From Amphiscolops sp. MND2022 (taxonomy: Eukaryota), in assembly GCA_964187785.1 (NCBI GenBank), contig OZ076409.1, forward strand, positions 66,652,001 to 66,716,000: DNA of 64,000 bases. Direction: 5' to 3'. The translations under genes and the position numbers were made by a program. The notes under the pieces are model-generated. The model saw only the letters and a program-made list of their open reading frames with translations, ran no database searches and was not told the DNA's origin. Below, one piece after another: positions 1-26,800 of the stretch (the first letter of the stretch is position 1; each line of letters opens with the position of its first letter).

Positions 1-1260
1 ACTGATAAAGGTACTGCATTTACTTCTACAATTATTGCGGAGGTTACGCAGATTTTGGGCATCACACTCAAATGTGCAACGACAAAACACCCGCAGACAA
101 TTGGGAAATTGGAGCGAACTCATGCCTCATTGAAAACAAATCTCAAAATGGCATGTGGGGAATATCGCCGACAGTGGCACAAATACTTGCCATTAGCAGT
201 ACTGAACCATAATACAAGCTATCACGCCAGCATCGGTTGTGAGCCAACGAGAGTATTTCATGGAAGAATTCCATTTAATATTTTGGATCACAAGCTTGGA
301 AATAATCCAAACGAGCAAATTAACCCCACAACCGAATTTGCTGAAGAGATCCAAAACCGGACAAAAATCCTGATTGACAAAACAAAGCAGAACATTATGC
401 AGTCGTATATCAAGTACAAAGAATATTACGACCGCAAAGCAAAAGCCGCTCCACTAAAGGAGAACGAATACTGTTTTGTCCTACAGCCGAAAGCGGACAA
501 TCAGGGATCAAAAATTCCATTCCGCGATTACCGTTGGGTTGGACCATTTGTAGTCCAAAAGGTTTTGCCAAATGAAAACTATATAGTAAGACGGATCAAT
601 ACGAACAAAACCCAAATTTTGCATCGCATTCGTCCTAAAAAGTTTGTCCCTAATCAGCCTCTTGAGGACAATTTCCAAGAACAACAGTTGCAGCCAGACG
701 AAGAAATTGTCATTCCGCAAGATGATTTATACGTCATAACGTGGGAAACCGACTTTGGCGAGCAGCTAGTTACACGAGGCAACGAGACTATTCCGACCAG
801 CATGCCGAATGGCGAACGACCGAATGCGGCAGAAACGAATACAAATGACGTAGCCGAGAATGAAGCGGATTACATAATCACGAGTGACAAAACAAACTAC
901 GCTGACCACGCGGCGCGGAACCGGAATGAAAGATTAAATCATGACGTCACAAAAAGGAATGAAGCTAGTGAAGCGACTAGCAACAGCAAATCTGATTGGC
1001 CGAATCCGGCCGTTTACCCCAAAGGACGAGAAAAAACTTTACCGAATACGGATAAAAGACCAAAAAATGATGAAATTCTCCCAGAAAGAAATTTGACGAA
1101 TGAAAATGACGCACAAAATTCTCCGAAAAGGGGGGATGATATTATCGTGCCCGAAATATCCGAAAACGATGCTAGAAATGAAAGTCTGAGCCCTAGAGGA
1201 GGGAAATATAATCTCAGGCCTAACCCTAACCCAACATACTCAGAAGACTTTAGATACTAG
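1..1260 (+). CDS. pol: Gypsy pol polyprotein C-terminus (integrase core, GPY/F-type region, disordered tail); 5'-partial
   Basis: Frame open from base 1: TDKGTAFTS...HPQTIGKLERTHASLK (D,D35E core), WVGPFVVQKV motif, terminal GKYNLRPNP motif; no stops. Confidence 0.95.
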   Translation, partial: TDKGTAFTSTIIAEVTQILGITLKCATTKHPQTIGKLERTHASLKTNLKMACGEYRRQWHKYLPLAVLNHNTSYHASIGCEPTRVFHGRIPFNILDHKLGNNPNEQINPTTEFAEEIQNRTKILIDKTKQNIMQSYIKYKEYYDRKAKAAPLKENEYCFVLQPKADNQGSKIPFRDYRWVGPFVVQKVLPNENYIVRRINTNKTQILHRIRPKKFVPNQPLEDNFQEQQLQPDEEIVIPQDDLYVITWETDFGEQLVTRGNETIPTSMPNGERPNAAETNTNDVAENEADYIITSDKTNYADHAARNRNERLNHDVTKRNEASEATSNSKSDWPNPAVYPKGREKTLPNTDKRPKNDEILPERNLTNENDAQNSPKRGDDIIVPEISENDARNESLSPRGGKYNLRPNPNPTYSEDFRY

Positions 1261-1503
1261 AAAAGATTGAATTTTGGCCAGGAGACAAGCCTTGGACCTA
1301 TTCCTTTTCTTCTATCATTTCATTTCTTTTATTTTTTCAGTCCCATGCAACATGGTATTTTTTGAATAAATAATGGGACAACCGAAGAACCCCTTTCAGG
1401 TAAATAAATACAGAGGCATTGCAACAAATGGAGATACAAAAGACAACAAAACAGAAAAATAACAAAGTTTACAGTTCATAAGTACATAAATACATATGTA
1501 CAA

Positions 1504-4500
1504 TTAGTCCTTAGAACAACCGGCAGGAGATTCTCTGACGACGGACGAGGCTCTCGAGCGGGATCTGCTCCTCTCCATGCGCTTCCGTTTGCGGTCACCG
1601 GGCGGGACTACTGCAGGCATATCTCCAACGCTGGAAGACGTTGTCTCATCGAGGCCCACTTCACCTAATCCAGAAAGGGCGGAACGATATGACGTAAGAA
1701 GGGACTTGTAAATTCTATTCCTACCAAACTCGTCAACGGAAGTCCAGGGGTCGTATGAGGCAGATGAGACAGTTTGACTGAAGGAGGCAGAAAGCAGAGA
1801 AAACTTAGCCAAACTAGAGTCACTGATACAGAAGGCAGTGGAGTCCGGAACCCCTGACAGATAACTCTGGACGGGTAAAACCACGTCTGTGAGTCTGTTC
1901 TGATGTTTTGTAGTGTTGGCAGTTCCAATACGTACTGTTGGGTATTGAGGACTTTCAGACGTAATGCATAAACAACTCAACTTGAATAGATATAACAGAC
2001 GACTATGCTCCTGCATAAAGTCAAGATTGACAAGGAAATCAATAAGATCCGGTGATCCCTGGCTAACATCGAATGAAGGAAGAGATGAAGCCTTGAGATG
2101 GTCCAATAGCTCCACGTACTCGTCCCGGCAGGTGGACTCATTTGCTAGACTGACCCAAGACCTGAGCTGAAAGGTCCGATATAATAAGTCGAAGTGACGT
2201 AGCGCTACTTCAGTGGGCCTTTTTACCAATTTATAAGGGTCAAAAGCAGCAAGGCCACGAACAAGATTAGAGCAGAGTCCGGCCTGGTGAAGAACACCCC
2301 CTATCAGGAACTGGATGAAATTTTGGCAGTCTCGGACGAAATCATTCTTGATGGTTTCTGCGGTCTTCTGCACTGCGGACCTGTCAGATTTCTTCCCAGA
2401 ATGGATGCCTTCTGATTTTTGCCTACTAGCTTTAGCAACTTTGTTCTTCATATTCAGTCGAGTGAGGAACTCATCAACTGGGAGGAATGCCCCCTCACTG
2501 GTTTGGAAGTTTAGAAGCAAGAACCACGAATTTTCGAGAGGGATGGTATCAGGAGCATAACACCGGAAGCACAGTCTGTAGACGTAACGGGCAACTTCCC
2601 CGCAAAGATAGAAGCAGGAATCACGTCCCTTATGCAAGTTGGAGGAGAAACTAGAGTCGTCTAAAACACAAGATACTTAGGTGTATTGGTCCAAAAGGAA
2701 AATCCTAGACTATCAAAACAGACTAACAATCACTAATGAGGTGATAGAAGAATTCCAACTTCACTGGAAAGAACTCATCACAGATGAGTGACCATTCAAA
2801 GCTCTGAACCTGCAACAAAAGGTTTACGGTGCGACTTCAAGACTTCCCCGTTTAATAGGAAAAGACGAAACCTGAGTTGAGACACTTACTCTAGTTCTGA
2901 CTCCTTGGCCCAGTTGTTTGGGAGAGTGCTCGGTAAGGAAAGAGACCACGGACTTCCACTCGTCCATGAGTTCTTGACACAAGAAAGGCAGTGTAGACAG
3001 GTCTAGATCGCTCTTGGAAATAGCCTAAAGAAAAGGCGGAGCCACTGCAATAACCCGTCTAGAAACCCTTAGGAGTGCGAGTTAGTGCTACAATATGATA
3101 CGAGCGCCCACTTACTTTGGCCAGTTCGGGACTGCGCTGTATCCAGTCCTCATCGGTCAACCCGCCCAGGGAGATGACCAAGCCGCGTAGCACTGAGAAG
3201 AAGTCTATGTGGCCGAAGACACTGTAGTTCTTCTTGTGCATCAACTTGGACAGATTGAGCTGGTTGAACCTGAAGCAGCTCTGAACAGCCCGCACTGAAG
3301 TTGGGAGCTCATCTATGGTCCGGATTAGGTCGGCCGGACACCCAGAACAGGCCACTACGTCTGCCTTTGTTGAAATTGCAGACAAGAGTCGCGCCATGGA
3401 ACCTAACTCTCCAGTGAGGTCGGTGGTGGGTAGCCTACTGCGACAAGCGATGACCTTGCAAAGATATTGACCCTTCCAGAACCTCACGGACATGAAGCGG
3501 TTGGGCCCCTGGTCTTCAAATTCCAAGGCAAAGCATTGCAGACTGGAAATTTGGTCAGCGACGTCACTCATGGCGCAGTTGAAGAAATGCTGGAATATTG
3601 CCTAAAATGGACACAGACCAAATATTAATAACCCAGAAAGGGAAAAGTCCTGTGAGAAGGGAAAGCAAATAACACTTACAGTCATCCTCTCTTCTCCCCA
3701 GTCGAAGTCGCAAAGGGAAGCTTGATGGTCAGTAATGGAACTGACTTTGGCCCACATGCTCCGGAGGATGGTGATGTCGCCATAGCTCTGGATGAAATCA
3801 GCTACCATGCTTAGCTGAGTTCTTGCTCGGGACTCGGGAGTAACCAAGGGAGTAGTCCTACCTCGAACGAAATCCTCGTAGAAAGGAAAACGTTCTCCAA
3901 TATCCACTAACTCCACATGGATAAACTTGGGGAGCTCCTTGGCCAGTTCTATCTTGCTCAAGATCTTCCCATTTCTGCCTCGGACTCGGTGTTGGGTCTT
4001 GAGCGTAATTGGATCGGTACTTTTCAGATACTCGTACCTCCACCTCTGGTCCCGTCTAAGATGTTTCTCAGTTCTGTGGTGCCTGAGTATCTCCATTGTC
4101 CCTTTACTTCTAATGGAGAAATTCTTCTTACAAAGGTGACACCAGACCATGAAGGGGTTGTGGATCGGATCCGCTGGCCCAGAGATAAACGACCGGGTCC
4201 AACCGATTTTTGCGAAGAACTCCTCTCGCATTGGGACTCCACGTTGAGGTAGTCTCTTGCCCTTCGGGGTCTTCTTACTCGGCAACTTGGTCGTAGACCG
4301 CAGTGACTGTTCTCTCACCTCAGATAAAGTGATATCCTGACTGCTTCGGTCAGTTTCTTGACTACCAGTCTGCATAACTCCTGGCTGCTCTGTAGGTGAA
4401 ACAATCGGGACGTCTGTGGTTTTGACTGAAGTTTCAAAAGAGGCCGAAATCAAGGCCATTTCGCCAGCACTGTCGCTTTCTCCGAATGAGGAAGAGTCGC

Positions 4501-5629
4501 CAAGTGTGCCCCGGTCTATGGTGTCATGTCCCTCTGAATCCGTAGTTGACAAGTCACCGGTCCCGGCGTCGCTGGAATCGCTATCAACTTGCCTGTAAGG
4601 AGTCTGTGCTCTGGTCCTTGATTTGAAATGGTCAGTGCGTGATGGGGCGATTGTAGGACTGCCCCGGACTGCATCCAGGATCATTCTTTCCATAGTAGAA
4701 TGTGACATCCGAAGCGTTTCGTCAGTTAAGATGCGTAACAGGTGATACACCTGAGACTCTGTGAAGGCAACTGCTGTTTGTCCTGGTGGGAACCGAAAGG
4801 CATGTGTCTCATCGAAATAAGTTTTCAGTATGGCTCGTGCCCTTCCAGAAAGTTCAGGAGGCTGGACGTCAAAGCCTTGAGAAGTGGATGCCTGTGGGTC
4901 GGTCTGGTGCTGCCTGAAGACGGTAGTGTCAGGGCATTCACTGGTCTCTCTTCCAGATTCAGACATTCCAGGAATATCTCCATAGAGTGAAGGACATTCG
5001 GTACTGCTCGCCTCCCCGGTTGTCTTCTCAGCCTCACTCAAGTCGGTCAAGAACCGGACTTTGTGTTCCTGGGTGGGCAGCATAGGAACTTCATATACAG
5101 AAGATTCGCCATACTCGTCATCCAAGGTCCTCCTAACTGGCGGAACAACGGTCTCCGCTTCAGTGGCAGGAAGGAGCTCAGGTAATTGGGATCCAGGGTT
5201 GTTTACAACTGTTAGACCTGCCTCTAATGTGTGCAAGCTAGCTTGGGATATTCCAGCAGTCTCCACCGGTATTGGGGTGCTAGACCGAACGGGGACTAAA
5301 CTCTGGGGAACATAGTCATTAGTGGAAGCCTCAGGATTGGCCGTCATCAAATTGGGATCACTGGTAGGTGATCGTTCGTGTACTTGGCTCTGCTCGACCT
5401 CCATTTCTTGCACTTTAGCTTCTGCATAGGCATTCACGTCTACCTCACTTTCGACGCCTTGAGGAGAAATCACAGATCTGGCGATGTACGCCACACTTGG
5501 AACTGTACCTTCATTGGAAATTGTTTGCGGCAGCCCAGAAGGGCTTGATGCGTTCTCAATCTCAGAAGCCTGATTATCTAAACGAAAAGAGATAAAGTTT
5601 AGCGGTATGCTTCCTTGAAAAGTGTCCAT
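1504..5629 (-). CDS. 5-exon antisense gene, 1269 aa: disordered N-terminus + BED-like Zn finger + hAT-transposase-like domain. Exons 5629-3680, 3601-3116, 3024-2890, 2809-2728, 2660-1504
   Basis: Four short GT-AG introns (78, 91, 80, 67 nt; donors GTAAGT x3, GTTAGT; acceptors TTTAG x3, TGCAG) join three ORF-track ORFs and two small exons in frame (phases 0,0,0,1; 3810 nt). Finger WCHLCKKNFSIRSKGTMEILRHHRTEKH at ~4147-4061. Confidence 0.85.
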
Positions 5630-6683
5630 TTTACCGCGTTGGAAATCTTCCGGAAGTGTCTTGAAAATTGAATGAAGCGTGCTTTCACGCGTCTAGTTGA
5701 TGGAAACAGGAAGCGTCATGTGAACAATGTTTAGCCTTGATCAAGCTAAGCTTGTTTGAAAGAAAGAGAAAATCAAACCAACCTGGATTGGAAGACATGT
5801 TGCCGTAATGTTACTCGTACAGTAAATGCTCTCGTCGGGCGAAAGAAGCTGAGGGAAATGGCCGTGGGTGGACTGAAGTTAGAGGCCCTAGTGCTGCAGA
5901 GAGGGGATCGACAGCAGAGTTAGAGACAAAGGGAAGATGAATATCAGCTAGGAGAATCCCAGTAAGGGAAACAATTGATATATAAATAGAATTCGAATGG
6001 AATTAAAGATGAATAAAGGAATTGGAAAGTTGGAGTTCGTGGCTGAAGAAATTACCAGACTAATATTATATAGTTATTTACATATTTATAATAGTGCATG
6101 GAGTCTGCCAGCGAAATGCACAGAACAACCTCACCTTTCTACAGATTATCCAATTAATGGCCGGTTAAGGCCATTCGCCTTATTTTATTCTGCCGGGTTG
6201 TCCCATTACCCTAATTATCTCCACGCGAAATTATCGCCATTTGGAATTATTCGGGATTATTATTTTCCGCCATTTTATTATTCAATTTTACAATTTATCA
6301 AAGCTCAATTCTGATTGGCTGAAGCCCATTTTGAGAAAACTTTGCGACGCATGCCGTTAATTGCTTACAAGCGACCCGTTAATTACCCACTTGAGACTGG
6401 TGTAGTTGATATTAAAAATTCAAGCGTCATTCACACCTCTCATAGTGATGACGCCGATGAGGGGTAAACACTGAAATATCAAAGGGTGCCGATTAGTTAT
6501 GGAATTCCATTCAGGAAAGTTTACGACGGATCAGGACGACTAACCGATGTTTTAACCGCCAAATTGGAAACTTCGGAAAAGCCTTACTGGGCTAAATTCT
6601 TGAATCGGATAAATTCATTCTACCTAAAACTTCACCTCAAATCAGTTGCCTTATCAGCTTCAAAAATCGCTAAAAAACTAATA

Positions 6684-7466
6684 ATGAGTAAGTTCAACCT
6701 CTCAAGAAAGTTGTTTGACTTTGAGGAATATGAATCCGATGATTCTAGCAAATCAGTAATCTACATATCCAGTAGTGAAGAAGAATCCTCAGACTGGGAG
6801 ACCGATTGTTCGACAGATACCGAGCAGCTAATTGCCCGGATTGAAAGGGAAGTTACTTCCAGTCCCGTGCTAATCGGGGGCAGGATAATGACCATGGATG
6901 AGCCTGAAGATGAAGCGAGAGCAGGGCCAAGTACGTCTCATGTAGAAGAAGGAACGACACCGAAACTGGGCATTAAATATTTTGACAGGGAAATGTGTTA
7001 TGCCCCGCCAAGGAGAATTGAAAAGAAACGCATAGAGCTCTGTAACACAATAATACCCGTCCTAGAATCGCCAATGTCACCTCCGGAACACGAGAGAGGG
7101 CCAAGCTTGGACACTCCCCTTGCACAGTCAATCACGAGTAACTTCCATGCGTCCTACCATGTGCAAAACACAGTGCCCTATCAAAATGTCAGTGCGGTGC
7201 CTTATACGGGATGCATGGTTTGCGGCCGTTCAGTGGACTCGATCAAGAACGAGAAGGTGGAATGGTACATGCAGCGATCCACACCCAGAGATGAGCCTGA
7301 GCACATCACCAGGCTTAGGAAGGAAGCGTACGAGAACGGACTTAACGCCGGCTGTTTTCTTTTTATTACTCCCGCAGTGTCGCAGGCTGCCGCCTGTGAC
7401 GGTACGAGTGTGACAACGTCGGCAACTGGACAAGAATTCGTACCCGGAACATTACCCATTTATTAA
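6684..7466 (+). CDS. Retroelement accessory ORF3 (~260 aa from first ATG): acidic/Ser-rich N-terminus, CxxC, C-terminus inside the LTR
   Basis: ORF track 6486-7466 (GTG start); first ATG at 6684. VIYISSSEEE and GCMVCG motifs; the SxAAACDG-like peptide recurs at the start of all four LTRs. Confidence 0.7.
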   Translation: MSKFNLSRKLFDFEEYESDDSSKSVIYISSSEEESSDWETDCSTDTEQLIARIEREVTSSPVLIGGRIMTMDEPEDEARAGPSTSHVEEGTTPKLGIKYFDREMCYAPPRRIEKKRIELCNTIIPVLESPMSPPEHERGPSLDTPLAQSITSNFHASYHVQNTVPYQNVSAVPYTGCMVCGRSVDSIKNEKVEWYMQRSTPRDEPEHITRLRKEAYENGLNAGCFLFITPAVSQAAACDGTSVTTSATGQEFVPGTLPIY

Positions 7467-9235
7467 TTGGGATAATTTACAAACTTAGAACTTTCATACT
7501 GTTTTGTTATTCAATACGTAATATGTTTGTTGATGTTGTTAGCTTCGATATATATGTACTTGCACATGTAAAATTAGTCTGTTAAAAGTCACATTTGAAG
7601 ATTCAAATAGTGTATTTGTAACTTCAAAAGATTGAAAGGCGCTTTGCTATTGTAAACGTAATACGTGACAATGTAGCTGTACAGTAGAAAGGAAACGAGT
7701 TCAAGTGAACGAAACTCCTATTCCGGAGACGTCACTTGAGCTCAACTCCTTAGCCAATCACGTTGCTCCTTTTCTATAAGTAATACCACTTTGATTATGT
7801 AATGGCCGAGTATGGCCAATTGACTCAATAATTGTGCCTTTTAGTCAAACGGCCGGTACCGGCCACTTCGTTGGAATAGCCTGTATGTGTGTTAATTGGG
7901 TGTACTAATCGTAAATTACTGTAAATGTACTCTTAATAATGAATGAAAGCCCCAATGCCGCGCAATGAGCTTAATAAACCTAGTACTCACTCAAAAGCCG
8001 AATAAGGCTTTTTCCCTCTTTTATTACAGTGCTGAAATAATAAACCGGATTTGTCCATCTTCGGCATTGTCAGAAAGTGTGTTATTTTAATAATGCTGTA
8101 TTATTTTAAGCAGAACTGATCATGTAATATTTAATCTAGTTCCTACTCACGTTGAATAATAGGCGCGTGGTAACGCGTGTCACAAGCACATTCCGAAGAG
8201 ATGCCTTTTGCATTCCTTCAATAGACATTGGTATTTGTTGACAGGATGATGTTGATGATGTTTATAAACACGACACTTGAAGGTGCTGCTTGTGTACCCT
8301 GTTAAATATCATTCTTTTGATGTTGAATTCCTAAGGACTACCCTGAAACTAGGAATTTTCCCAATCGGGACATCACCCTAAAATATCTGCTTTGAAGTGT
8401 TGAACACCCTACCCGATGCTGTAATAACACTTGTCACATGACCCGTTGAGGCCATAGTCATATGATGTTTTCTTGATCAAAGAATTTGTGGAATGTGAGT
8501 GTGATCTTTTTAGGAGTATATATAGCTATATTTCTGTAAAAAAGGACACAAATCCCATACCTTTACTTTGATAAAGATTGAATTAATACAACGACTTTTG
8601 TCAGTTTTCCGGTTTTGATAATTGAATTATTCAACCGGGTTCTGTCTTAATGCCTACCACTAGAAAGCAAAAGAAAGCGAGAAAGTCTAGGGGACTTGAG
8701 ATGTTATCAGATATTGAAAATCTGGATATCATGTTAGGCGAAAACCATTTTGGTGCACGAGAAAGAGAAGGTAGCCTGAATAGCAATTTACCTAGGAGGT
8801 CTAGGAGTTTTGCTAGTAATGAGTCTGACAATGGGGACGGGAACGGAAGTAGACCCAGGGGAAATATTGAACCTAGGATGAGTGCCGAGTGTGATCGCAA
8901 TTCTATCACAGGTGATTCTAGCGCTGAAATAAACAGATTGTCTAGCGAACTGAACTCTCGTATTTCACGGGAAATGGATGAGATGATGAATTCCGTAAGT
9001 GTCCAAATACAGAGAGCCATAAACGACGCGATAAGTACTCAAGTACTTCCTCAAATCCAAAATGTTATAATGGCCGAACCAGGACACAGGATCAGAAAGG
9101 GATGGGACGTTCCGGCCGAGAGACCGGAACCAAATTCCGAAGTTCAGCGAGACCTTAACGCAAAGAGTAGCTTAAGAAACGAACAATATGTGAATCAATT
9201 GAACGGTGATTACCCTGACCTAAATGTTCATGACA
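7378..9235 (+). repeat. 3' LTR (1858 bp) of the cargo-bearing Gypsy element
   Basis: Starts TGTCGCAGG like the solo LTRs, ends CATGACA; contains a TATA-like box (~8516) and the MPTTRKQKK ORF. Confidence 0.9.
8650..9235 (+). CDS. LTR-encoded N-terminal ~195 codons of a putative gag ORF (open through the LTR end)
   Basis: MPTTRKQKKARKSR...LSDIENLDIMLG...RISREMDEMMNSVSVQIQRAI...VLPQIQ has homologues in all four LTRs; the frame is open across the terminal CA. The gag identity is inferred from position only. Confidence 0.6.
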
Positions 9236-9299
9236 CTAATTTTTTTAAAGCTTCTATTACAACACTTTTGGAGTATTAATAATTAAACGCTTAGTTTTT

Positions 9300-9900
9300 A
9301 TAAGCCATCAAGAAACTTCTAGAAGTAAAAAAGGCGCGTATATTGTTTTAATTCCTTTAAAATTAAAAATTCCATATTGTTTTAATTCCATTGCGCGTTA
9401 ATTACCATCAAGTGCTGATAAAAACTATGAGTTTTATTTTATGTACCAATTACGTAAAAATTGGAAAACGTGGGTGCCCAAATGTAAAAGAAAAATCAAC
9501 AGAACTCGGATCTTCGGGGACATCAGAAAATTTTTGGCACAATAGTTAAAAATCTCATTTTGGGTCCTAAAATCTTCGTGGTGTCGTTTGGCTAAAATAG
9601 TCTCTCGAAAAAATTGAAAGCAGAACACAAAAATGATGACAACGCGTTCAGTGTAACAAACGAAACATGAAACCCTAACCCGAAGCGTTTCAGCATCTTG
9701 TAATCAGAGCAAACCAAGATACACATGTTATGGTTGACAAAAGAAATGTGAAGATTGTCATTCGCGATGAAAATTGACTCAAGAAATTACATCCAAGAAA
9801 GTTGGCCAGACTTCAGATTCTGTTCTCAGTTCCAAAAAACTGATATACCATCAAAAACGCAAAGAAGTTCGAAGAAAAGAAAGCTGTGATTAATCTTAGC
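9300..9900 (-). pseudogene. Degenerate paralogue of the GPCR at 18015-19205 (TM4-TM7 remnant)
   Basis: FFRETILAKRHHEDF..QNEIFNYCAKNF vs LFRETAMAKRHHEG..QSEFLYQCAKSF; CILVCSDYKMLKRFGL vs CVLGCTDFKFLKYIGL; frameshifts and stops. Ends approximate. Confidence 0.8.
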
Positions 9901-12900
9901 CCATTTTAAAGGAAGCACCTAATTCATTATTTCTGCGATAGCAGGCCACTTTTTGTTTTCTCGGCACTATGCGACTTACTGAGAAAAGAGAAATATTTCA
10001 ATAAAATTTTTGAAAATAATTTTTGAAAAACATTTTTCGCAATTTTTAGTTTTTGAGGTTTCCTGTGAAGGAAAGGAGATTCCCGAGTCTTGAGGGTGAC
10101 TTCTTTGTTATTTTTGATCATATGGAACTGACGAGGTTTCTTATTGATTGTGAAAACTACCTCATATCAATTTTTTTGACTCTCTGCGTCTTTCAAAAAC
10201 TTTAATTTGGTCAAAGAGTACTTCTTGCTTTCATAGCTGATTTCAGCTTGAGAAAAGTAGTTTTGCGAGATGAAACGTGTGTCACCATCATAGAACATTA
10301 CCGGAAAAAATCAAAAAATGGGATTTTTTGGATTCCTGTTGGGAAAAATGTGGTTTCCTAGTCTGAGGCGTGTTTCTTGGGAGTCTTTTCGGCACTCAGA
10401 AATTGACAGAAACTTGAAACTAGGGTCCTTTGCAAGTTTAAAAATTTTGAGCGCGGCGTCAACTTGGGCTGGTCCCGACTTGTTTTTTTTGCACATAGTT
10501 TTCACCAGAAGTGTTAAAAATCAAAAATAGTTTTGACAACTTTGAGGTTAATTTGAAGAACTTTTCTAACATGAATCTACAGATGTCTCTTCAAAATTAG
10601 GCCTACGGGACACTGAGTTTAGCTGTTGTTGATTGTTTACACCATTCAACCCACAGAGTAGGTCGAAACATCTTCCTTTGGAAGGTGTACTCCATATCTA
10701 GTGACTTTGCTGGGAATTTTTTGAATATTAAATTTTGGATAAATGAGGTCGAAATCTACGTTTTCAAGCAAAGTTTTTGAAAGTTGGGCCAATAAATTCG
10801 TCTGATATCTTTTCGACAAACTATCACTTCGATGAACTTCATCCCACTTAATCCCCATTTGCGTTTCGAATACTTTTTGTGTCAACGCTCAGGTCATTGG
10901 AAGTACTAATCTTTAAAAACTTTCTTGAATTGTACAAAAATTGAGATTAGCTTGTCAAACAATGTGATTTTTTTGTCGCTTCATGGATGTTTGGGCATTT
11001 TTGAGCCAATTCCAACAAAGAATGCAGTTATTATTTCAAAGTTGCCTACTGGAGATACCCTGATAAGTCCTTGCTGACTTTAAAAACCATTTAATGCGAG
11101 CAAGTAGCTCAAACATTGTACAAAAAACTGCCTAAATTTGTAAAAAAAACATGAAACTGCTCAGTTTTTCCAATATTTGTGTCTCTCTGAGGAAACTTTC
11201 GAGCACAAAATAGGCATTTTTTTTAAGAAAAAAAAACGTGCTTCTTCGGACCTAGATTCATCATCTTATGCTTGTGGAAGCTTTTTAAACCGAGGTTTTC
11301 AACCTCAAATGAAAGTTCACAGAAAATGCAATTTTCGACATTTTGCTGTCAATTACGAGCCATTTCAAACCGAAGTCTGCAAATATTCCTTTGAAGGCCT
11401 ACTGGAGTGAGAGTTCAGTCTTTGTTGAACGTTTGCAAACATTCTGACTCCAAAACAAATCAAAAAGAACACAAGTTGTACATAAACGACAATGTTGAAT
11501 TTTTTCGACTCCTTGGGAGTCATTCTGAAGAGATTTTGAAGCAAAACGCTGCAACGTTCTCTTAAAAATAATGTAATGCACAGGTCGTTCTTTCTTTGTT
11601 AAGTTGATTGTGCTGGAACTTAGAACAACATCTCTCGCAAAATTTACAGAAATTACTTCAAAAACAACAAAAACTTAAACTTTTTTTCAGTTCATGGTCA
11701 ATTTGAGGCTTATTTCATTTACAAATTGATCTTATCTCGTGAAAAAAGCACACGGAAGCAACAAGTTAGCCCATGATTTAGGTGTTTTAACATTTTAGTC
11801 CGCAAAGTCTATCGATATTTTGACAAAAAGTGAACAAAAATAATGAAAATCGTAAAACTTTCGAAATTATGACTTTTTCGATGTCAATTCCGGACAATTT
11901 CCGTATGAAAAACGGCATTTGTCTCTTTTCTACGGGACAACACATCCTTTCCTTGTTGACCCGTTTCAACGTTACGAAGGATGAAGTCTGTCGAAAATTT
12001 GGGAAAATTTGCATAAAATCTTTGAAAATTGGAGAAATTTTGGGATTTTGTCATTTCGGTGTCATTTTCAGACTTTTTCATTCTGAGCATTGCTAATATC
12101 TCTTCATTAAAGACTACTCGAGAACCCACATTTTCCTTGGTGAGACTTTAAAATGTTCCAATCTACGAAAACTCTTGAAACTTTAACAAAAATGCATAAA
12201 AGTTTTTAAAAATGGAAAATTTTGTGTTTTTTGTCGTTTTCGTTGTCAATTTGAGACATTTTCACTTAAAAAACTGCAATAAACTCTTCCGGAAAGCCTC
12301 CTGGACAACGATGTAGTACCATTTTGAGCGTTTTCCGCATTCTATTTCACGAAGTTTATCGAAAATTTGACAAAAATTGCATAAAAACTTGAAAAATTGG
12401 AAATTTTCTCTTTTATGAGTCAATTTTGTGTCATTCTGGGGTCCTTCGAATCAACTAAAAAAGTCCAGAAATCTCTACGAATACAAATCGCACGAAGCTA
12501 AAATTATGTGAGTTGAATTTTACGGGTAACACCCTTAAAGTTAAATATAAATTTGGCGCTTGGCAAAGTTTTAAAAAAAACCGTTTGATATAAATGTTTT
12601 TTCCCATATGAAATATGGGCGGAAAGTAGAAATTAAGAGCCTAGTACTTGAGTTAAGATTTTGATTCAATGAGATTAGCTTTCGATCATTGAAATGAAAT
12701 GTAAATTTGCAGAATCTTTAACAGAAAAGCATCTAGTATGTCATGAGATTTAATTTATTTTAAATTACATTTTTCGAAGCATTTACTTTGTCAAAAACTT
12801 GCAATCGATATCTTTGGGTGCAGTAATCATTTCTGAGAGGACCCCAATGACTTTTATTTGTCAAAATCAGAAATTTCATCAGGATACAAACTTCATCAAA

Positions 12901-18014: not shown

Positions 18015-19205
18015 TCAATCCGAAATATCATCAAAAGATGGTAATGTGCTGGTCCTGGTTGCTTCGTAGTTGGAATCTCTGTTATTAGGAGCATAGGAAA
18101 TTTGGTTATTGTATTCATTTTGATTACGCTGATTATAGAGAACATTTCGCGCCGTAGCTGGGCGTTTTTTCCAAAGACATGGGCATATTCTCTTTAACTT
18201 GGGAACAACGATTCCTCGAAACTCGAACCATGTCCATGCATAGAGAAACGGATTCAGGGCGCAATTAACCAGAGGTGTAAGTTGGACCACTTGATCGAAC
18301 CAATGCTGCATAAGTTTTTCTTCTAGTTTGATATTAGCATTGCCGATTACGTAAACATACCAGAAGATTTGGTTCGGGACCCAAGCGAGAATGTAAAAGG
18401 TCACTATCAAGGTCAACCGGATGCAAAGTGACCTCATAAACGATTTCGCACATTGATATAGAAACTCAGACTGAGGGTCAAAGTCTCTGCGACCTTCATG
18501 GTGTCGTTTCGCCATTGCAGTTTCTCGGAACAATTTGAAGTAGCAGACAAAAACAATTATCAAGGGGATTATCATCACCAATGAAATCTGCAAGACCAAA
18601 CCTATGTATTTAAGAAATTTGAAATCAGTGCAACCGAGAACACACTGGACTTCGCCATCTCGTTTCCGAATGTAGAAATTAAAGGGGCTGTCGTTAAGAA
18701 TAACCAAACCGAGAACCCAGCTGAAAACAAGCAGACAACGGATGCGACATTTAGTCCCAAACAGAAAGGTGTACCATTTGGGTTTCAAGTCACCCTTAGA
18801 TGCACCCAAAAGTTCCATGGTAAGAAAGACAACCAACCACGAGGATGCGCATGTTAGGGTCAAGACGAGGAAGTTTGAAAGGTAGATTCTGCATATTATT
18901 TGACCGCCTATGCCGTCTGGGATTCCTGCTTTTGCTGGGTAACATATTTGGGCAATCATGCCTAGATTTTGAAGCATGTCCGTGAAAGCTAAGTTTTTCA
19001 ACACTCTGAGGTGATTGGTGAGGTTCGATGTTGAAAAAAGAACAAAATAAATGAAAGCGTTCATGATGATACCAAAAACACCGCCGGCCAGCATGCACCA
19101 AAAAAATCCATCGTGGGGATCGTATTTTCCATAAATAACCAAAGCATCATCGTCATCATCAGTTGTCTGTCTTTCAAAGTGGAATAAACCTGATTGAAGT
19201 ATCAT
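18015..19205 (-). CDS. Intronless class A (rhodopsin-like) orphan GPCR, 396 aa
   Basis: Seven hydrophobic segments; TM2 NLAFTD, TM3 Cys and ECL2 Cys, TM6 FYILAWVP, TM7 NCALNPFLY; the DRY position reads ELL. Confidence 0.92.
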   Translation of the reverse strand: MILQSGLFHFERQTTDDDDDALVIYGKYDPHDGFFWCMLAGGVFGIIMNAFIYFVLFSTSNLTNHLRVLKNLAFTDMLQNLGMIAQICYPAKAGIPDGIGGQIICRIYLSNFLVLTLTCASSWLVVFLTMELLGASKGDLKPKWYTFLFGTKCRIRCLLVFSWVLGLVILNDSPFNFYIRKRDGEVQCVLGCTDFKFLKYIGLVLQISLVMIIPLIIVFVCYFKLFRETAMAKRHHEGRRDFDPQSEFLYQCAKSFMRSLCIRLTLIVTFYILAWVPNQIFWYVYVIGNANIKLEEKLMQHWFDQVVQLTPLVNCALNPFLYAWTWFEFRGIVVPKLKRICPCLWKKRPATARNVLYNQRNQNEYNNQISYAPNNRDSNYEATRTSTLPSFDDISD

Positions 19206-20876
19206 TGTTGAATCGTAAAAAGCAAAACAAGGACTCTACCAGTCGAAGGAGATGATAGCCGCTGAGAAATATAAATGTACAATCCGATATTTGATTAAAA
19301 TCGGAATTTCAGAAAATATAGAATTGTGAAAGAATCATTCAACTGGCAAAACAGGTGCCGAAGTTCTTGAACAAAACATTTTTGACGTTCGTATGAATCG
19401 AATGAGCAAATAGAGAGGGTTGAACATTCTTGAATGACCCGAATGAGCAATTAGATGTGGACTGAAGCTATCTTAGTTCAACTCTTTTGCTTGGTTTGTT
19501 AGTGAATTTATCAAACGACAAGATTCGAACGAAACCATCCCAGCGTCGATTCTCATTTGGTGACGCCATAGCCACTGAATGTATTCAAGAAACTCGTTTG
19601 TCAGCAATTTCATTGATTCGAAAGTTGGTTTTACTTAATAGCATAAAATATGCATGACGTGTAACGGAAGAATGAAGATATTAACGACACAAGGCTTCAT
19701 TCTCAAAAGGAGAATCATTCAAATTGTTCAGCCGTATAATGCTTCCATTGTTATTTGTCATTCGTCGTACGCGTCTTTGCACTTAATATTCAAAATGTAA
19801 CCAGATTTTTCCACAGAGGAACCCTCCAAAAACTCGATTGACTCTCTGTTCAAACCCGGAAATATTGTGGAAGACCATATGAAAATGCGAGAGGCGATGA
19901 GGCATTTTTGGCATTTTTGAAACATTAAGGATATTGATTTTAACTAAACTAATTCTCACTTTTGAGTGTGGAATATATATTTTTGCAAAAGTGGACTGAA
20001 TTATTTTCATTGGGCAACCTTTTGGGCAGGCAGAAAGAGCCACAAGTAAAATCATCAAATCAAAGAAATTCGCTCACAGCGCAAAAATTTTTGAATCTCA
20101 AGTTATAGAGATTCAGTAACAAAAGGTTCTAATATAACCAAAACGTGAGAAACCTAAACAATATGCAACCTACATTTAAATGTTTCTTAAAGGGCTTTGT
20201 TGCTTGACTCCATAAAATTTCATGAAGGTTTTTGGAAAAAAACTAATGAAATCGAAAGTAAGTATGAATTCTTTAATGTTAAAAACATCTAGTTTCAAGT
20301 AGCTCTATAAATGAGTTTTCAATCCTCAGAAGTCACTCAAAACAACGTCATATTTAATGTATTTTAGTTAAATTGGTTTTCTTGGACCTCACAAGTTTGT
20401 GAGAACACCCAGGAGAAGTAGAAATTGTTTTTTAAGTGCTTGGATGACGTATCCGGACTTGGAGTGTGCCGGTTACTCGTCCCGGAGCTCTTAAATGAAC
20501 TCATGCAAAACAACGGGAAAAATAACATTAGATTTAAGAAAACTATTGAATTGACAACCTTTATTAACAGGCTGAAAGCTGATTTTCTACCTGGTATTCA
20601 GTTGTTAAACATATGAAAGTTTGAGTTCTTTGCTTAGTGAATAAAGTCGAAAAATTACAAAGAGTTTAAGTTCCAAATTATGTATCTGATACTAAAAAGT
20701 TTCAATTCTTAGTAAGTCTTGATCTGATCAACTTCGAAGCTTCCGTGGATGAAATACTTGCAACCGAACAGGTTGTCACTGTGTATCGATCGTATGTTTC
20801 TCACTTCGCTTCTCGAACACTATCTCGATCATGTTGATCACGTCATACAGCTATCATGACGTCACTGTTGATTACG

Positions 20877-23800
20877 TCATCTTCCCAAATTGAACGAAGG
20901 AACTGGTAGCTGTTTGGTCTTGAAAGCCGGCACTAAGCCCTTCGGACGACCAGAAGCTTCGTCTCTGGTAACCTAAAATGATCAAATGTTGAAGGTGAGT
21001 TAAATCTGGATTTCCCGACAGACCGATTATATTCAAGACCATAAACGGCTATCCAAATCATTAAAAAAGTCAATGCTCTTCTTACTACCTGCGTATGATA
21101 AACCTGGAATCATGTATCTTCCTGTAACCATAGGCCATTAACACGCATGCCCATTATTGTCAACCTGTCCACCATTTATATGTATGATCATGCTATGCTT
21201 GGAATCTGTTGTAGCTTGGAATCATACTTTTTTAATTATTGCAGGCTATGGTAAGCCTGTTCTTGTATGGGGGGCAAACCCTGGCGGTTAAACAAAGTTT
21301 CTTCCACTATAACAGATTTTCTGTAGACTTCATTAAAATACTGAACAGATTATGCATGCCATGGCTAATTCTGGCGTCTGAAGATAGCTGACAATATGAG
21401 GTTCTTAAAAAGTTAAATGCTAATCAAAATGTTGCTATTGAAAACCTTCTAATATACCAATCAAAAAATATATTTTTTTTAGCTGTTGGCTCTTGCGGCA
21501 TGACGTCACTTCATGCAATACTTTACATGTATACTATAAATAGTAGAGTGACAATTCAGTACCTGTCAGCAACGCTACGACTCAACATTGTGCTGACCTA
21601 TTCATTAACCTTTGAATACTCTTATTGAACAGAATAGATTCTACAGCACTACCCTTGTTTTCTTATCTTATTCCCAAGATGCAACACGGTGCAGTAGCAA
21701 GATGGACCATCAAAAAGCAACAGAGAGCGCAGGCTCTTCAAGCAGAGAAATCTCCGACAGAACAAACTTAAAAACCGAAAAGACACACCAAAAGATCACG
21801 TTAGAAACATTTGAAAAACGCGGTATACAGGGGGCGAAGTCATGGTGGAGACGATCCACGCAGTACATTAGAATGACCCAAAATGTCGATCTCAACGAAA
21901 TGACAACAGATCGCGAAATAATACGAAACTACAGGGACGATCTGGAACACCGGATCAAAGATTTGTTCATTTGGGCACTGGACGAGTGAGCAATAACGGA
22001 GATGACAAGAACCGTTAGGGACAACGACCCACATCGAATGGACATTAACCAATTATATTCGCTGTTCCGGTTACATTTTATATCGGATCGAAACAAATTC
22101 CATAATAGAGAGGACTTCTTTGAGATAACAAGAGAAAAACATGAAACAGCAGAAGACGTATGGGCAAGAATACTAAAGGTGGAAAAAAACTGCGAATTCG
22201 AAAACGTAACACCAGCAGAATTGATAGCATCAGAGTTCCTGTCTGTAATAGGCAAATCAACAAGCGATTACGAATTACAGAAGAAAATTCGAAAAAAGCT
22301 ATTCGACGATCGAAACAATAACAGCCTTGACACAGGAACACATCTACGACCGATTAAATGATTCAAACAATTCGAACGACGGAAGGGAAATAAAACTCGT
22401 ACAAGAACGACCATACAAACGAAAATGGACAGACAAATTCGATGCGGACAGAACAAAGACATTACAGGAATATCAAAAGCAAAAGCCAAAAGATAACCGA
22501 CGTGGACAGTGGGGGCACCAAATTGGTCGAGACAGCACATCTGCCCAGCAGAAACGGCAAAATGTAGAAAATGCAAAAGAAGAGGCCATTACGAAAAGGT
22601 GTGCAGATCAATGAAACGAGTAAAATACATTGATAGAACATTATCATTGGCAGAAGAAGATAAACTGGGAATACGATAGAATTCCGAGATTAGATAACAT
22701 AAAACAGAAGAAAAGCTTTTACAGTGCCACACTATTGGTTAACAACGTACCAATCAAACTCATCTTCTACAGCGGCTCACCAGTTACACTCTTTCCGGAA
22801 TGCAAAATTACACCAATTGAATCTTTCATGACCACGTATAAAGATGTAAACAATCAAAAGATTAACTTCGTAGGCCAGACGAATTCTACGGTCAAAACAA
22901 ACTAAGAAACAATCGAACTACCATTATTAATTTACAAAAGCACAAACGGCGCCGCTAATGGGACTGGACTGGATGCAACGGCTGAAAATCAACTTGAGTT
23001 CAAGCAACGACGCAATTCAAATTCACAACATAAAACTGGACAACACGGAAAGAAGGATTATAAAACTCCACAACGACTTCAAAGATCTATTTTACAACAA
23101 AAAAGATAAAAAATCTCTCGGTCAAAAGAAATCTAAAGCCGGAGCACAAATAATACAACACAAAGGACGACCAATCCCAACACATTCACAAGACCAAGTG
23201 ACACAAGAATTAAAACGCCTAATAAAACACGGTTATGTGCAACAGAAATTACCGAAGATTGCATTGTAAGCCCCGCAGTAATAACAGTGAAAGACAAGTT
23301 GGTAAAAAATGCCCTCGCTTCTTCCAAAAAACTAAACAAGATCACAGTGAAGCACAAATGCCAAATTTGGAAGAATTGATATCACAAATTTCGAGAAAAG
23401 TCTCTGGAGGATCAGACGGTGAAATAATAGCAACAGAACTCGATTTCGATTATGCATACGGGCAATTCAAGCTCAATGAAAATACAAAAAACATATGGAT
23501 GTTTACCGTAACGGGAGGAGATTTTACAGGATATTACCGTTTCCTGAAAGGCATTTACGGACTGGCCGATATTCCAACAAAGTTCCAAGAACGGATAGAC
23601 ACAACACTGGAGGCCGGCCTGGCTAGATGACATAATAATAGTCACCAAAGGAAACAGGGACAAACACGAAGCGGAAATAAGAGAAACAATGACCAAACTG
23701 GCGAGGTACAGATTAAACCCCAAGAAGTGTGAAATCTTCAAAAAAGAAATTGAATGGGTGGGGCCTAAAAAAGCTCAACAAGACATCAGACCACTCCAAG

Positions 23801-26800
23801 ACAAATTGGAAGCAATTAGCAAAATCCACATACCAAAAACTGAAAAAGAATTAATATCATTCCTGGGAGCTATCCAATACCTATCAAAATACATGCAAAA
23901 CTTGTCAGCAAACACCGATATTCTGAGAAAATTGCTGAAGAAACAAAACGATTGGATATGGACGGACAAACACACCGAAGCATTAAACAAATTAAAAGAA
24001 GGTATTACAAAAATACCATGCTTAGCACACTAATCCCCTCAGAGTGAAAACATAATTACAACAAACGCCAGCACGGAAGGATTGGGAGCAACTCTTTGGC
24101 AGAAACAAAAAACTGGCGAATTAAAACTGATCTGATTCGCAAGTCGATTTTTATCCAATACGGAGAAGAAGTACAAAATAAACGAACTGGAACTGCTAGC
24201 AGTACTCTGGGGACTGGAACACTTCAGACTACATATTTACAGAAAACCAATCGAGATATTAACAGATCACCAAGCGCTGGAACCACTCATTAAAAGAAAC
24301 ATGTCAAAAAAACCTACAGCGCAAAACTAACAATATGGTTAGATCGTTTGGCTCATTTCGATTTAAATATCAAACACATCACCGGAAAACATTTGAAGCT
24401 AACAGACTATTTGAGCAGAAATACAATATCAAAGCCAGAGCCTATTGAAAGATACGACGAAGAGTGCGTAATTAATTGCATACTACCATTACTTGAGTTC
24501 TTCAGTAATTACGGCAACATCACCGGTAAGTTGAATTCAGAAGCTAGAACGGACCAAATTAGGAAGTGTGAACAGAAATTCAACCAATCAGCATCAAGCA
24601 AAATGAACGAACCGAAGTATGTAGCAAACAAAACAAACAAGCGCAGTTCGTTGCTACCTCAACTTAATACAGTCAATCAAAGCACAATTAACATCTTGCA
24701 AACCAACCACGAAACAACAATGGTCATTCTCATATGCTGCATTGAACAAAATGAAACAGATGATCCATCGGAAGGAACAACTAACAAACCGTTGGAAAGA
24801 AGTGGTAGAACCCGGAGAATAAAGAACGTCTAATGGAGTCTGGAAAAAGTACAATCCGCAAAACATCACGGAGCGGAAATAAAACGAATCGAAATGATGT
24901 TAAATCAAAGAAGAAATAGACTGCTCTGGGACTGCATGGAAGAACAAGATGAAGAACCGGAGGAAGACACCACACGAAGACAAGAGCTAAACAGGGTGAT
25001 AGAAAAAATTAGAAGCATGCCGCAAAAACAAGAAGGAGAATAACCAGGAACAAACGACGGCACGTAAGAGACAATTGAGACAGAATCAACAAGTTCATAT
25101 GAATCATTTGGCGTCCCAGCAGTCAACTTCAGGAAACACCTCGGGACAACCAGTGTGGGGTATATTCAGATGGCACAGGCCAGTCACATCCAAAATGAAG
25201 ATAGATGGGACCTGGAGTAGAGTATCAGGCAAGTGGAGCAACAATTAACTTCAGACCTGAAAACCATTGCCACAGAAACAAATAATGGCGAAAAGTTACT
25301 GAAAACACTGGAATGCTTGGAGAAAAGAACGTTGGAACAAATACCTGACGAATACGAGCCATACCAGAAACAGTTGTCAACGAGATTCGTCGTGGTATTT
25401 TTTGATGACCAAATTTTAATCCCGAAGGATCTGAGAACAACTATAATTATGTTCCTACACAAAGGAAACGCGGCCATCAACAAGATGACGGCAGTGGCGA
25501 AACCATGCTGGTGGCCACGGATAACACGAGACACACAGCAAAATGCGATGAATGCGTTTCGTGTAAAATGGCAGGTAAGAACATTAAACCACAATTGCCG
25601 AAGACCGAAATTAACTACTAACCACCGGTAGATAAAATATACTGAGAAATCTAATTGGATTTCATTGGACCAATAAGAGTTAAGCACAATAGATTTTACA
25701 TATTACTTTCAATAAACAGGTACAGCAGATGACCGGGTGCATGCTATTGTGAAGCACCGACAGAACGAACAGCAAAAAAAATTTTGAAACAAGATGTTAC
25801 ACTGAATAGCGTACCACAAACCATTACAACAGATAAAGGCACTGCCTTCACTGGAAAAGAATTGAGAACTCTGTAAATATCTAAACATTAATTTAATCTA
25901 TGGAACACCATATCTACACACACCAACCGGACTGATGGAATGGGGTATTAGAACACTAAAGGGATACCTCCGAACGAACCTAGAGGAAGGACACAACATG
26001 AACGACGCATTAGGTCGTTCACTAAATGTAATGAGAACAACGGTCTATTCTAGCCTAACGGAACCACCGTTCGAACGTCATTACGGCAGAAAACGACGAA
26101 CGGAATTCCATAATTGTTTAAATGTGTCACCCAATAAACATTACAATGTTTCAGCGAGACCAGAGACGCTACAAGTCTATTCCTTTACCAATAGAAACGG
26201 AGCATACGAATAACTCGTAATGAAAGCCTCGAGAAAACTAAAGGAAGACGTAAGTAATAAAATCCATGCTTATTCCTCCAAAAAAACGCAACAGAGATAA
26301 ATTTGAAAGTGTGTACGAATACAAACCACAAACCGAGGTAGCGGGAACGAAACACACAATAGTAACGGATACAAACAAAATAATACATAGAAAACGAATA
26401 AGCAAACCTTTGAACTCAAAATTTCAGAACCCTCTTATCACGACGAGGGGGAAACCCGAGGGGGAAAAATTGGAGATTTGTACAGCCGGAACAATTAGAA
26501 GACAATGACATAACAGCAGAACACTCGGAGAGAAGCAGTACACCGGTGCTAGAAGAAAGTGTGCTGGATAATACACCGGAAATAGAGAACACAACAATCA
26601 GTACAGTGTAGGGCAGAAGCCGAAAAAAACTAAATAGGGACAGAAGCACCACTACAACACCAAAACCCGGACCGGAAATCAACGCAAGACCAACCACGGA
26701 GGACAACCCGAACGTGATCACTGTGGTGGATCAAAACGGTATCACCGATTTAATAAAAACTGAAAACATAGAACAAACTGATAACCAGAACGAACAAAAT

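Follow-up and report, generated by a model that had tools for sequence, protein, structure and literature searches.

The window, by which we mean the whole 64,000-nucleotide stretch of DNA analysed, opens inside a gypsy-type LTR retrotransposon of 16,164 bp (16.2 kb). Upstream of the window (L021:3072-10000) come the 5' LTR, the gag gene and the remaining part of pol, and the domain order of pol is PR-RT-RH-IN, of gypsy type (Pfam). Between pol and the 3' LTR the element holds an antisense gene, here called the cargo gene, and a second accessory open reading frame (ORF) in sense orientation. Outside the cargo gene, the element has the following parts.

L021:3072-4929, upstream of the window: 5' LTR
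L021:4344-4929 and window about 8650-9235: gag-coding part of the LTRs
1..1260, plus strand: 3' portion of pol, coding for the integrase core and a C-terminal tail, in an open frame with its stop at 1258-1260
1261..1503, no strand assigned: spacer separating the stop codons of the convergent pol and cargo genes
5799..6680, no strand assigned: region from the cargo to the sense ORF, with conserved blocks (DNA alignment of 8 elements)
6468..7466, plus strand: second accessory ORF, rich in Pro and with a conserved CxxC; its last 89 nt lie in the 3' LTR
7378-9235, plus strand: 3' LTR, 1,858 bp, TG...CA

The two LTRs are 99.3% identical over 1,858 bp, with CTAAT as the 5-bp target duplication. Elsewhere in the family such a duplication was readable at 14 of 16 other LTR pairs, with no sequence common to the 14, and a candidate primer-binding site starting with TGG lies 3' of the 5' LTR in 15 of the 16 pairs. 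The gag frame of the window's element is broken by one stop codon; other copies keep 577-585 open codons there. Gag starts deep within the LTR (181-216 codons inside it in 15 of 16 pairs checked), which places the primer-binding site within gag.

A purine tract is absent from the window's lineage, in which the 3' LTR is preceded by a pyrimidine run ending in CCCGCAG (window 7353-7377) instead of a polypurine tract; distant lineages have a short, G-rich tract at this place. Despite this absence, LTR pairs remain 98-99.8% identical. The start of the LTR (window 7378-7402) is the most widely common motif among 21 elements and holds a conserved, imperfect 9-bp palindrome, which also falls within the coding frame of the sense ORF. 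Further upstream, between protease and RT (L021:7100-7345), there is a weak dUTPase-like match (Pfam, E 0.13), a position at which dUTPase has been reported in rotifer LTR elements (PMC5408684).

Elsewhere in the window, a long tandem array (37200-40500) repeats a unit of 21-22 bp and shows a higher-order period of about 173-195 bp. An intronless ORF on the minus strand (18015-19235) matches the rhodopsin-family 7TM receptors (Pfam, E 2.7e-13), and a 749-codon open frame on the plus strand (44335-46584) has no Pfam match. By this receptor gene and by its spliceosomal introns, the genome was judged to be that of an animal. The region 21300-34000 resembles a decayed retroelement with an A-rich plus strand; its repeats are spaced about 1.6-1.7 kb and 5.6-7.6 kb apart, and it includes an RT-RNase H fragment (31579-32124).

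The cargo gene runs on the minus strand from 5798 to 1504 in six exons (5798-5783, 5577-3680, 3601-3116, 3024-2890, 2809-2728 and 2660-1504) that together make 1,257 codons with matching phases.

5783..5798, minus strand: mini-exon 0, 16 nt with 5 codons, the first of them the likely start
5578..5782, minus strand: putative intron 0, 205 nt, phase 1, with conserved donor and acceptor and matching phase
4247..5577, minus strand: N-terminal part of exon 1, acidic and rich in Ser/Thr; it contains a single small conserved block and, ahead of the finger, a basic patch
3680..4246, minus strand: conserved part of exon 1, with a C-x2-C...H-x5-H finger, a beta-hairpin insert and a helical region
about 4201-4061, minus strand: the C-x2-C...H-x5-H finger with its upstream W/F
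3602..3679, minus strand: intron 1, 78 nt, phase 0
3116..3601, minus strand: exon 2, predicted long helix and RNase H-like core
3025..3115, minus strand: intron 2, 91 nt, phase 0, absent in copy L203
2890..3024, minus strand: exon 3, 45 codons
2810..2889, minus strand: intron 3, 80 nt, phase 0
2728..2809, minus strand: exon 4, 82 nt, 72-100% identical across copies
2661..2727, minus strand: intron 4, 67 nt, phase 1, donor and acceptor conserved, absent in L203
1504..2660, minus strand: exon 5, with a helical region, the segment called hATC-like in a preliminary description of this DNA, a basic tail and the stop at 1506-1504

Splice signals are conserved in nearly all of the 58 locus rows compared, which correspond to 55 distinct copies, and intron lengths vary. 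Intron 1 (3679-3602) shows GT..AG in 57 of the 58 rows and measures 72-249 nt across copies; six homologues (P0128, P0185, P0212, P0217, P0238 and P0274) lack it and their reading frame runs straight on, so that WGEERMT/AIFQHFF, as the preliminary description gave it, is a real splice junction. Intron 3 is precisely missing from 33 of the 58 rows, and the pattern of mini-exon 0 (ATG, four codons and G/GTTGGT, strictly applied) occurs in 22 of 34 elements. Because splice signals are conserved, introns are precisely absent in some lineages and mini-exon 0 recurs, the exon structure predicted from these alignments is well supported. All motifs quoted in the preliminary description are present on the minus strand and in the order given there. 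The gene it placed at 1780..4147 is real, and its true extent is longer, from a five-codon first exon at 5798 to 1504. In the variable N-terminal region, the small conserved block (window about 4840-4690, minus strand) is kept in distant homologues.

Of 34 spacers, 30 have AATAAA on the pol strand, shortly after the pol stop, and 4 have it on the cargo strand, counts that carry no shuffle or composition control and are not independent because the copies are related and the pol strand is also A-rich. The motif marks a possible internal poly(A) site. On the other side of the cargo, the region 5799..6680 is likely a bidirectional promoter, with blocks that presumably merit motif names such as CCAAT box. 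The sense accessory ORF was found in all 34 other copies and has no family match in Pfam; its dN/dS of 0.06-0.15 where computable indicates purifying selection, and its prolines and CxxC are conserved.

We searched the 1.07-Gb genome for further copies of the cargo gene. Queried with exon 5, it yielded 7,260 first-look candidates, of which 131 were scored as matches with 64-100% identity, and other cargo queries gave 6,180-10,868 first-look candidates; none of these figures is a copy number. A profile search returned 781 clusters at 50% identity (E up to 0.001), and none of the 20 clusters looked up had a name. Homologue P0212 reaches no more than 31-36% identity with its best matches in the host genome, which indicates that related cargo genes probably exist in another organism or in an unassembled family; relatives of P0217 were not found in metagenome contigs.

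The 34 other copies examined closely were taken from high-scoring matches of several queries, which biases them toward intact copies. In all 34 the cargo lies antisense and adjoins the integrase, down to 24% identity, and no free-standing cargo was found among them. RT is present in 33 of the 34, as is a direct repeat pair. In distant lineages, exon 5 is 24-34% identical while RT is mostly 78-89% identical.

Selection on the cargo was estimated by comparison with the nearest four of the other subfamilies, at dS 1.1-3.3; comparisons reaching further are mostly saturated. The dN/dS is 0.02-0.03 for the finger region (two computable comparisons), 0.04-0.06 for exon 2, 0.04-0.07 for exon 5 and 0.09-0.24 for the N-terminal part of exon 1 where dS exceeds 1 and the ratio is computable. 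The finger and the dimerisation-type region (3680..4246) are the most conserved part of the cargo. The cargo is under purifying selection with an intact frame and without transposition signals.

Trees of 14 elements (C4a, which has no RT, was omitted) conflict between modules, which suggests that modules have been exchanged by recombination. Among the loci examined, L199, L201, L209 and L211, with internal stops, and the frameshifted L205 are not part of alignment A11. The tree of the sense ORF differs from both the cargo tree and the pol tree. Element C10b falls beside the window's element in the sense-ORF tree (99/99) and in the farthest cargo clade (100/100), and C13a has an integrase 99% identical to that of the window's element and an exon 5 protein that is 82% identical.

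The preliminary description read the cargo as a hAT transposase, and structure prediction lends support to this for the N-terminal and catalytic half. A first, independent AlphaFold model, of a closer copy and built from 20 close sequences, was poor (pLDDT 42) and had no significant structural match, with Hermes ranked second (E 0.68). The second, a template-free model of homologue P0274 from 86 sequences, reached pLDDT 72.5, with 80-90 in the core. P0274 is about 40% identical to the near copies; its model is without the finger cysteines and stops at exon 2, so that the C-terminal half (exons 3-5) is outside it. The model consists of a long helix followed by three strands, a helix, a strand and a helix. 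Against 350,542 chains, Foldseek ranked Hermes structures 1-7 (E 6e-4 to 5.8e-3, with one match below 0.001), followed by RT, integrase, Argonaute and ISCth4 (rank 21, E 0.072), the last of which we take to be a Mutator-related transposase.

Comparison with VIA placed model residues 141-259 on Hermes 143-265 (108 residues, Z 7.2, rmsd 3.0), a score at which unrelated RNase H-like folds tie with Hermes and none reaches 8. A second look with VIA placed 78-259 on Hermes 76-267 and 113-258 on 113-265 (rmsd about 5), with the helices before the core in register with the dimerisation region of Hermes (76-170; rmsd 5.0-5.1, Z 6.5-7.0). The same method laid ISCth4 over model 97-293 (168 residues, Z 6.3, rmsd 5.3). 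The regions that the preliminary description had assigned to the first and second Asp fall within the predicted RNase H-like sheet that matches Hermes. Taken together, the models well predict an RNase H-like fold for the N-terminal and catalytic half of the cargo, and a Hermes-type layout is the best structural match for this modelled half.

Sequence comparison gave no corresponding signal. Pfam showed no hAT signal for single proteins or for alignment members (86 and 23), and sequence and profile searches of the PDB returned no hAT match for the cargo. Eight hhalign comparisons, against five hATs of the same genome and 60 ZMYM1/THAP12-like hATs, all gave probabilities below 1%; in two runs the best, non-significant local match fell on the motifs of the preliminary description and disappeared with deeper alignments. 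In local HMMER searches none of 125 hAT proteins exceeded 8 bits, as was also the case for reversed and shuffled controls. A DUF4371 search of the genome returned no match, an uninformative blank. The host genome does contain ordinary hAT elements with intact-looking DDE transposases (L101-L105, L110 and L160), none of which resembles the cargo in sequence.

Individual motif assignments fared accordingly. The hATC profile (PF05699) has no match in the C-terminal region of the cargo, and neither hhalign, Pfam nor HMMER lends statistical support to the proposed hATC segment; the TK.RNRL said to be kept there is peculiar to the window's subfamily, other copies reading quite differently. The finger, described as BED-like, has near-invariant C2H2 ligands (its Cys/His positions are kept in 33, 34, 33 and 34 of the 34 other copies, with the W/F conserved), while zf-BED models in Pfam do not match it; 13 of 86 alignment members show a weak match to another C2H2 model (best E 5e-5).

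Hermes activity is reported to require D180, D248 and E572, with E572 mutants described as supporting no step (PMC2533014). The corresponding positions of the cargo would be these.

Codon 3523-3521, minus strand: putative first-Asp site, Glu, exon 2
Codon 3346-3344, minus strand: putative second-Asp site, Ser, exon 2
From 3277, minus strand: CxxF where CxxH would be expected, exon 2
Codon 1944-1942, minus strand: putative third catalytic site, Tyr, exon 5

The first AlphaFold model places residue 238 on Hermes 177, and the Glu of LEFED (model 241) then falls on Hermes D180, provided that the strand continues without a gap. Across the 34 other copies the first site reads E33/D1, the second S27/T6/C1 and the third Y16/L9/F6/M2/C1, the second and third sites being assigned by motif register and not by residue-level structural output. 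The His of CxxH is replaced in all 34, by F, Y or I, and no copy retains more than the first Asp. The proposed loss of the putative catalytic residues thus extends to every copy read. If the cargo stems from a DDE transposase, it is very probably catalytically dead; the near-invariant Glu may serve some metal or nucleic-acid role.

We considered three other accounts of what the cargo is. An ordinary hAT element nested in the retrotransposon, or a decaying passenger, is hardly credible. hAT elements have TIRs and 8-bp target duplications (PMC4316626), and in the window's copy a perfect 13-bp inverted repeat does flank the cargo (1371-1383 and 6196-6208; p about 0.01). The repeat is present in only 2 of 34 elements tested, both of the window's subfamily and without an adjoining 8-bp duplication; no TIRs are common to the elements examined and no copy has a DDE triad, so we rejected a nested hAT or TIR relic. 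Strong purifying selection and the identical position in all lineages argue in the same direction. Stable carriage under such selection, without common TIRs, agrees instead with the proposal that the retrotransposon has domesticated the gene. Neither outcome that the preliminary description named as fatal to its reading was obtained: the predicted structure does match an RNase H/hAT fold, and an intact DDE triad with flanking TIRs is absent.

It is unlikely that the ancestor was a Mutator/IS256-type or other insertion-domain DDE transposase, with Hermes leading only as few such structures have been solved. The reach of the ISCth4 alignment and the absent hAT profile signal would fit such an origin, against which stand the Foldseek values (E 6e-4 for Hermes, 0.072 for ISCth4), a numbering that is nearly one-to-one with Hermes from the N-terminal helices onward, and an N-terminal W/F-CxxC-H-H finger that suits the hAT layout, as in the hATs of the same genome. 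An origin other than a transposase, from a host or viral gene that was captured and has an unrelated RNase H-like fold, is very improbable: the lack of sequence support for hAT and the VIA ties of Hermes with pantothenate kinase, actin-like and Hsp70 domains favour it, yet those matches span only model 171-263, whereas Hermes reaches the preceding helices and leads Foldseek. We conclude that the cargo probably descends from a DDE transposase and, with less assurance, that this ancestor was specifically a hAT.

We therefore propose, at a probability of roughly one half, that these gypsy elements carry a likely disarmed hAT-type transposase as a DNA-binding activator or anti-silencing factor for their own elements. 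A transposase gene would have been captured in reverse orientation long ago, and its introns would survive reverse transcription because the gene is antisense. Transcribed from an internal promoter as its own antisense transcript, it would yield a protein that enters the nucleus via its basic patches and uses the finger to bind element DNA, probably in dimeric form, while the acidic N-terminal region would keep cognate copies transcribed. We infer the activator role from the conserved finger, the acidic N-terminal region, the basic patches and transposase precedents: transposases can activate their own copies, TnpA being transposase-derived, and domesticated transposases are reported to lose DDE recurrently (10.64898/2026.08.24.746577). 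Granted a dead transposase, a transcriptional role is about an even prospect. Repeated binding-site arrays above shuffles were not found in 21 elements.

The same protein could act on DNA in another way. Transposase scaffolds bind and pair DNA ends, and the cargo might anchor the integration complex on selected DNA or chromatin, or pair the LTR ends, as the strong conservation of the finger and dimerisation-type region and the palindrome at the LTR start would allow. We regard this as unlikely, as cargo alleles have apparently been swapped between pol backbones without a matching change of integrase, the 14 target duplications have no sequence in common and the palindrome also lies within the sense-ORF coding frame. 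A role on RNA, for example read-through of the poly(A) signal after pol to give full-length genomic RNA, would draw on the strand difference in AATAAA and on the H-x5-H spacing, which also occurs in RNA-binding fingers; given the relatedness of the copies, the A-rich pol strand and the lack of a composition control, we consider it improbable.

Extending the proposal of a self-activating, disarmed transposase, we put forward as a tentative view that a whole, highly successful LTR radiation depends on a transcription or anti-silencing factor derived from a disarmed hAT transposase, a class II enzyme domesticated by a class I element. The module would be antisense, intron-bearing and swappable, and its alleles would diversify from one pol backbone to another. 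With so many natural alleles, binding specificity is open to direct test. If the cargo regulates its carrier, animals would offer a case of a self-activator that is encoded by a transposon and whose origin can be traced. Our results also suggest that antisense ORFs still unexplained in other LTR elements may be transposases too diverged to be recognised by sequence. In the literature searched, subscription journals and Repbase aside, neither this element nor a hAT-derived LTR-retrotransposon cargo is described, and we met no retrotransposon lineage there that retains an entire disarmed transposase.

Transposase domestication is already known for hosts and for DNA transposons themselves. The cargo is predicted to share with Hermes and other hATs, in register, an N-terminal finger, helices of dimerisation type, a long helix and an RNase H-like core; unlike them, it has E, S/T and hydrophobic residues at the putative catalytic sites, a replaced CxxH His, no TIRs, a long acidic N-terminal extension and no profile match. 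FAR1, MUG and Spm TnpA, with VANC as a functional analogue, are regulators that derive from transposases or are encoded by transposons; many have a broken DDE and evolve under purifying selection (10.64898/2026.08.24.746577). In contrast to FAR1, MUG, TnpA and VANC, the cargo is carried by a class I element with an RNA intermediate, and no motif arrays were found for it; the main text of that preprint does not contain the word "retrotransposon".

Among LTR elements, plant Retand conserves an ORF that runs antisense in the interval from pol to the 3' LTR and is proposed to encode a DNA-binding regulator; its TRP28 domain ("Transposase_28") has, despite its name, no similarity outside transposons reported in these sources (PMC11963269, PMC7264820). 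The cargo differs from it in its introns and in its predicted, near full-length transposase layout, and has no TRP28 match in Pfam. The plant mobile domain is common to Gypsy LTR and MULE elements and is linked to silencing; unlike the cargo it is not a transposase, and its proposed flow is from host gene to MULE (PMC5418596). LTR elements of bdelloid rotifers have captured a non-env ORF3 (DEDDy, GDSL) and dUTPase, ORFs that keep their catalytic residues, unlike the cargo, and the main text of that study does not contain the word "transposase" (PMC5408684). Finally, the accessory genes of viruses diversify much as we propose for the alleles of the cargo.
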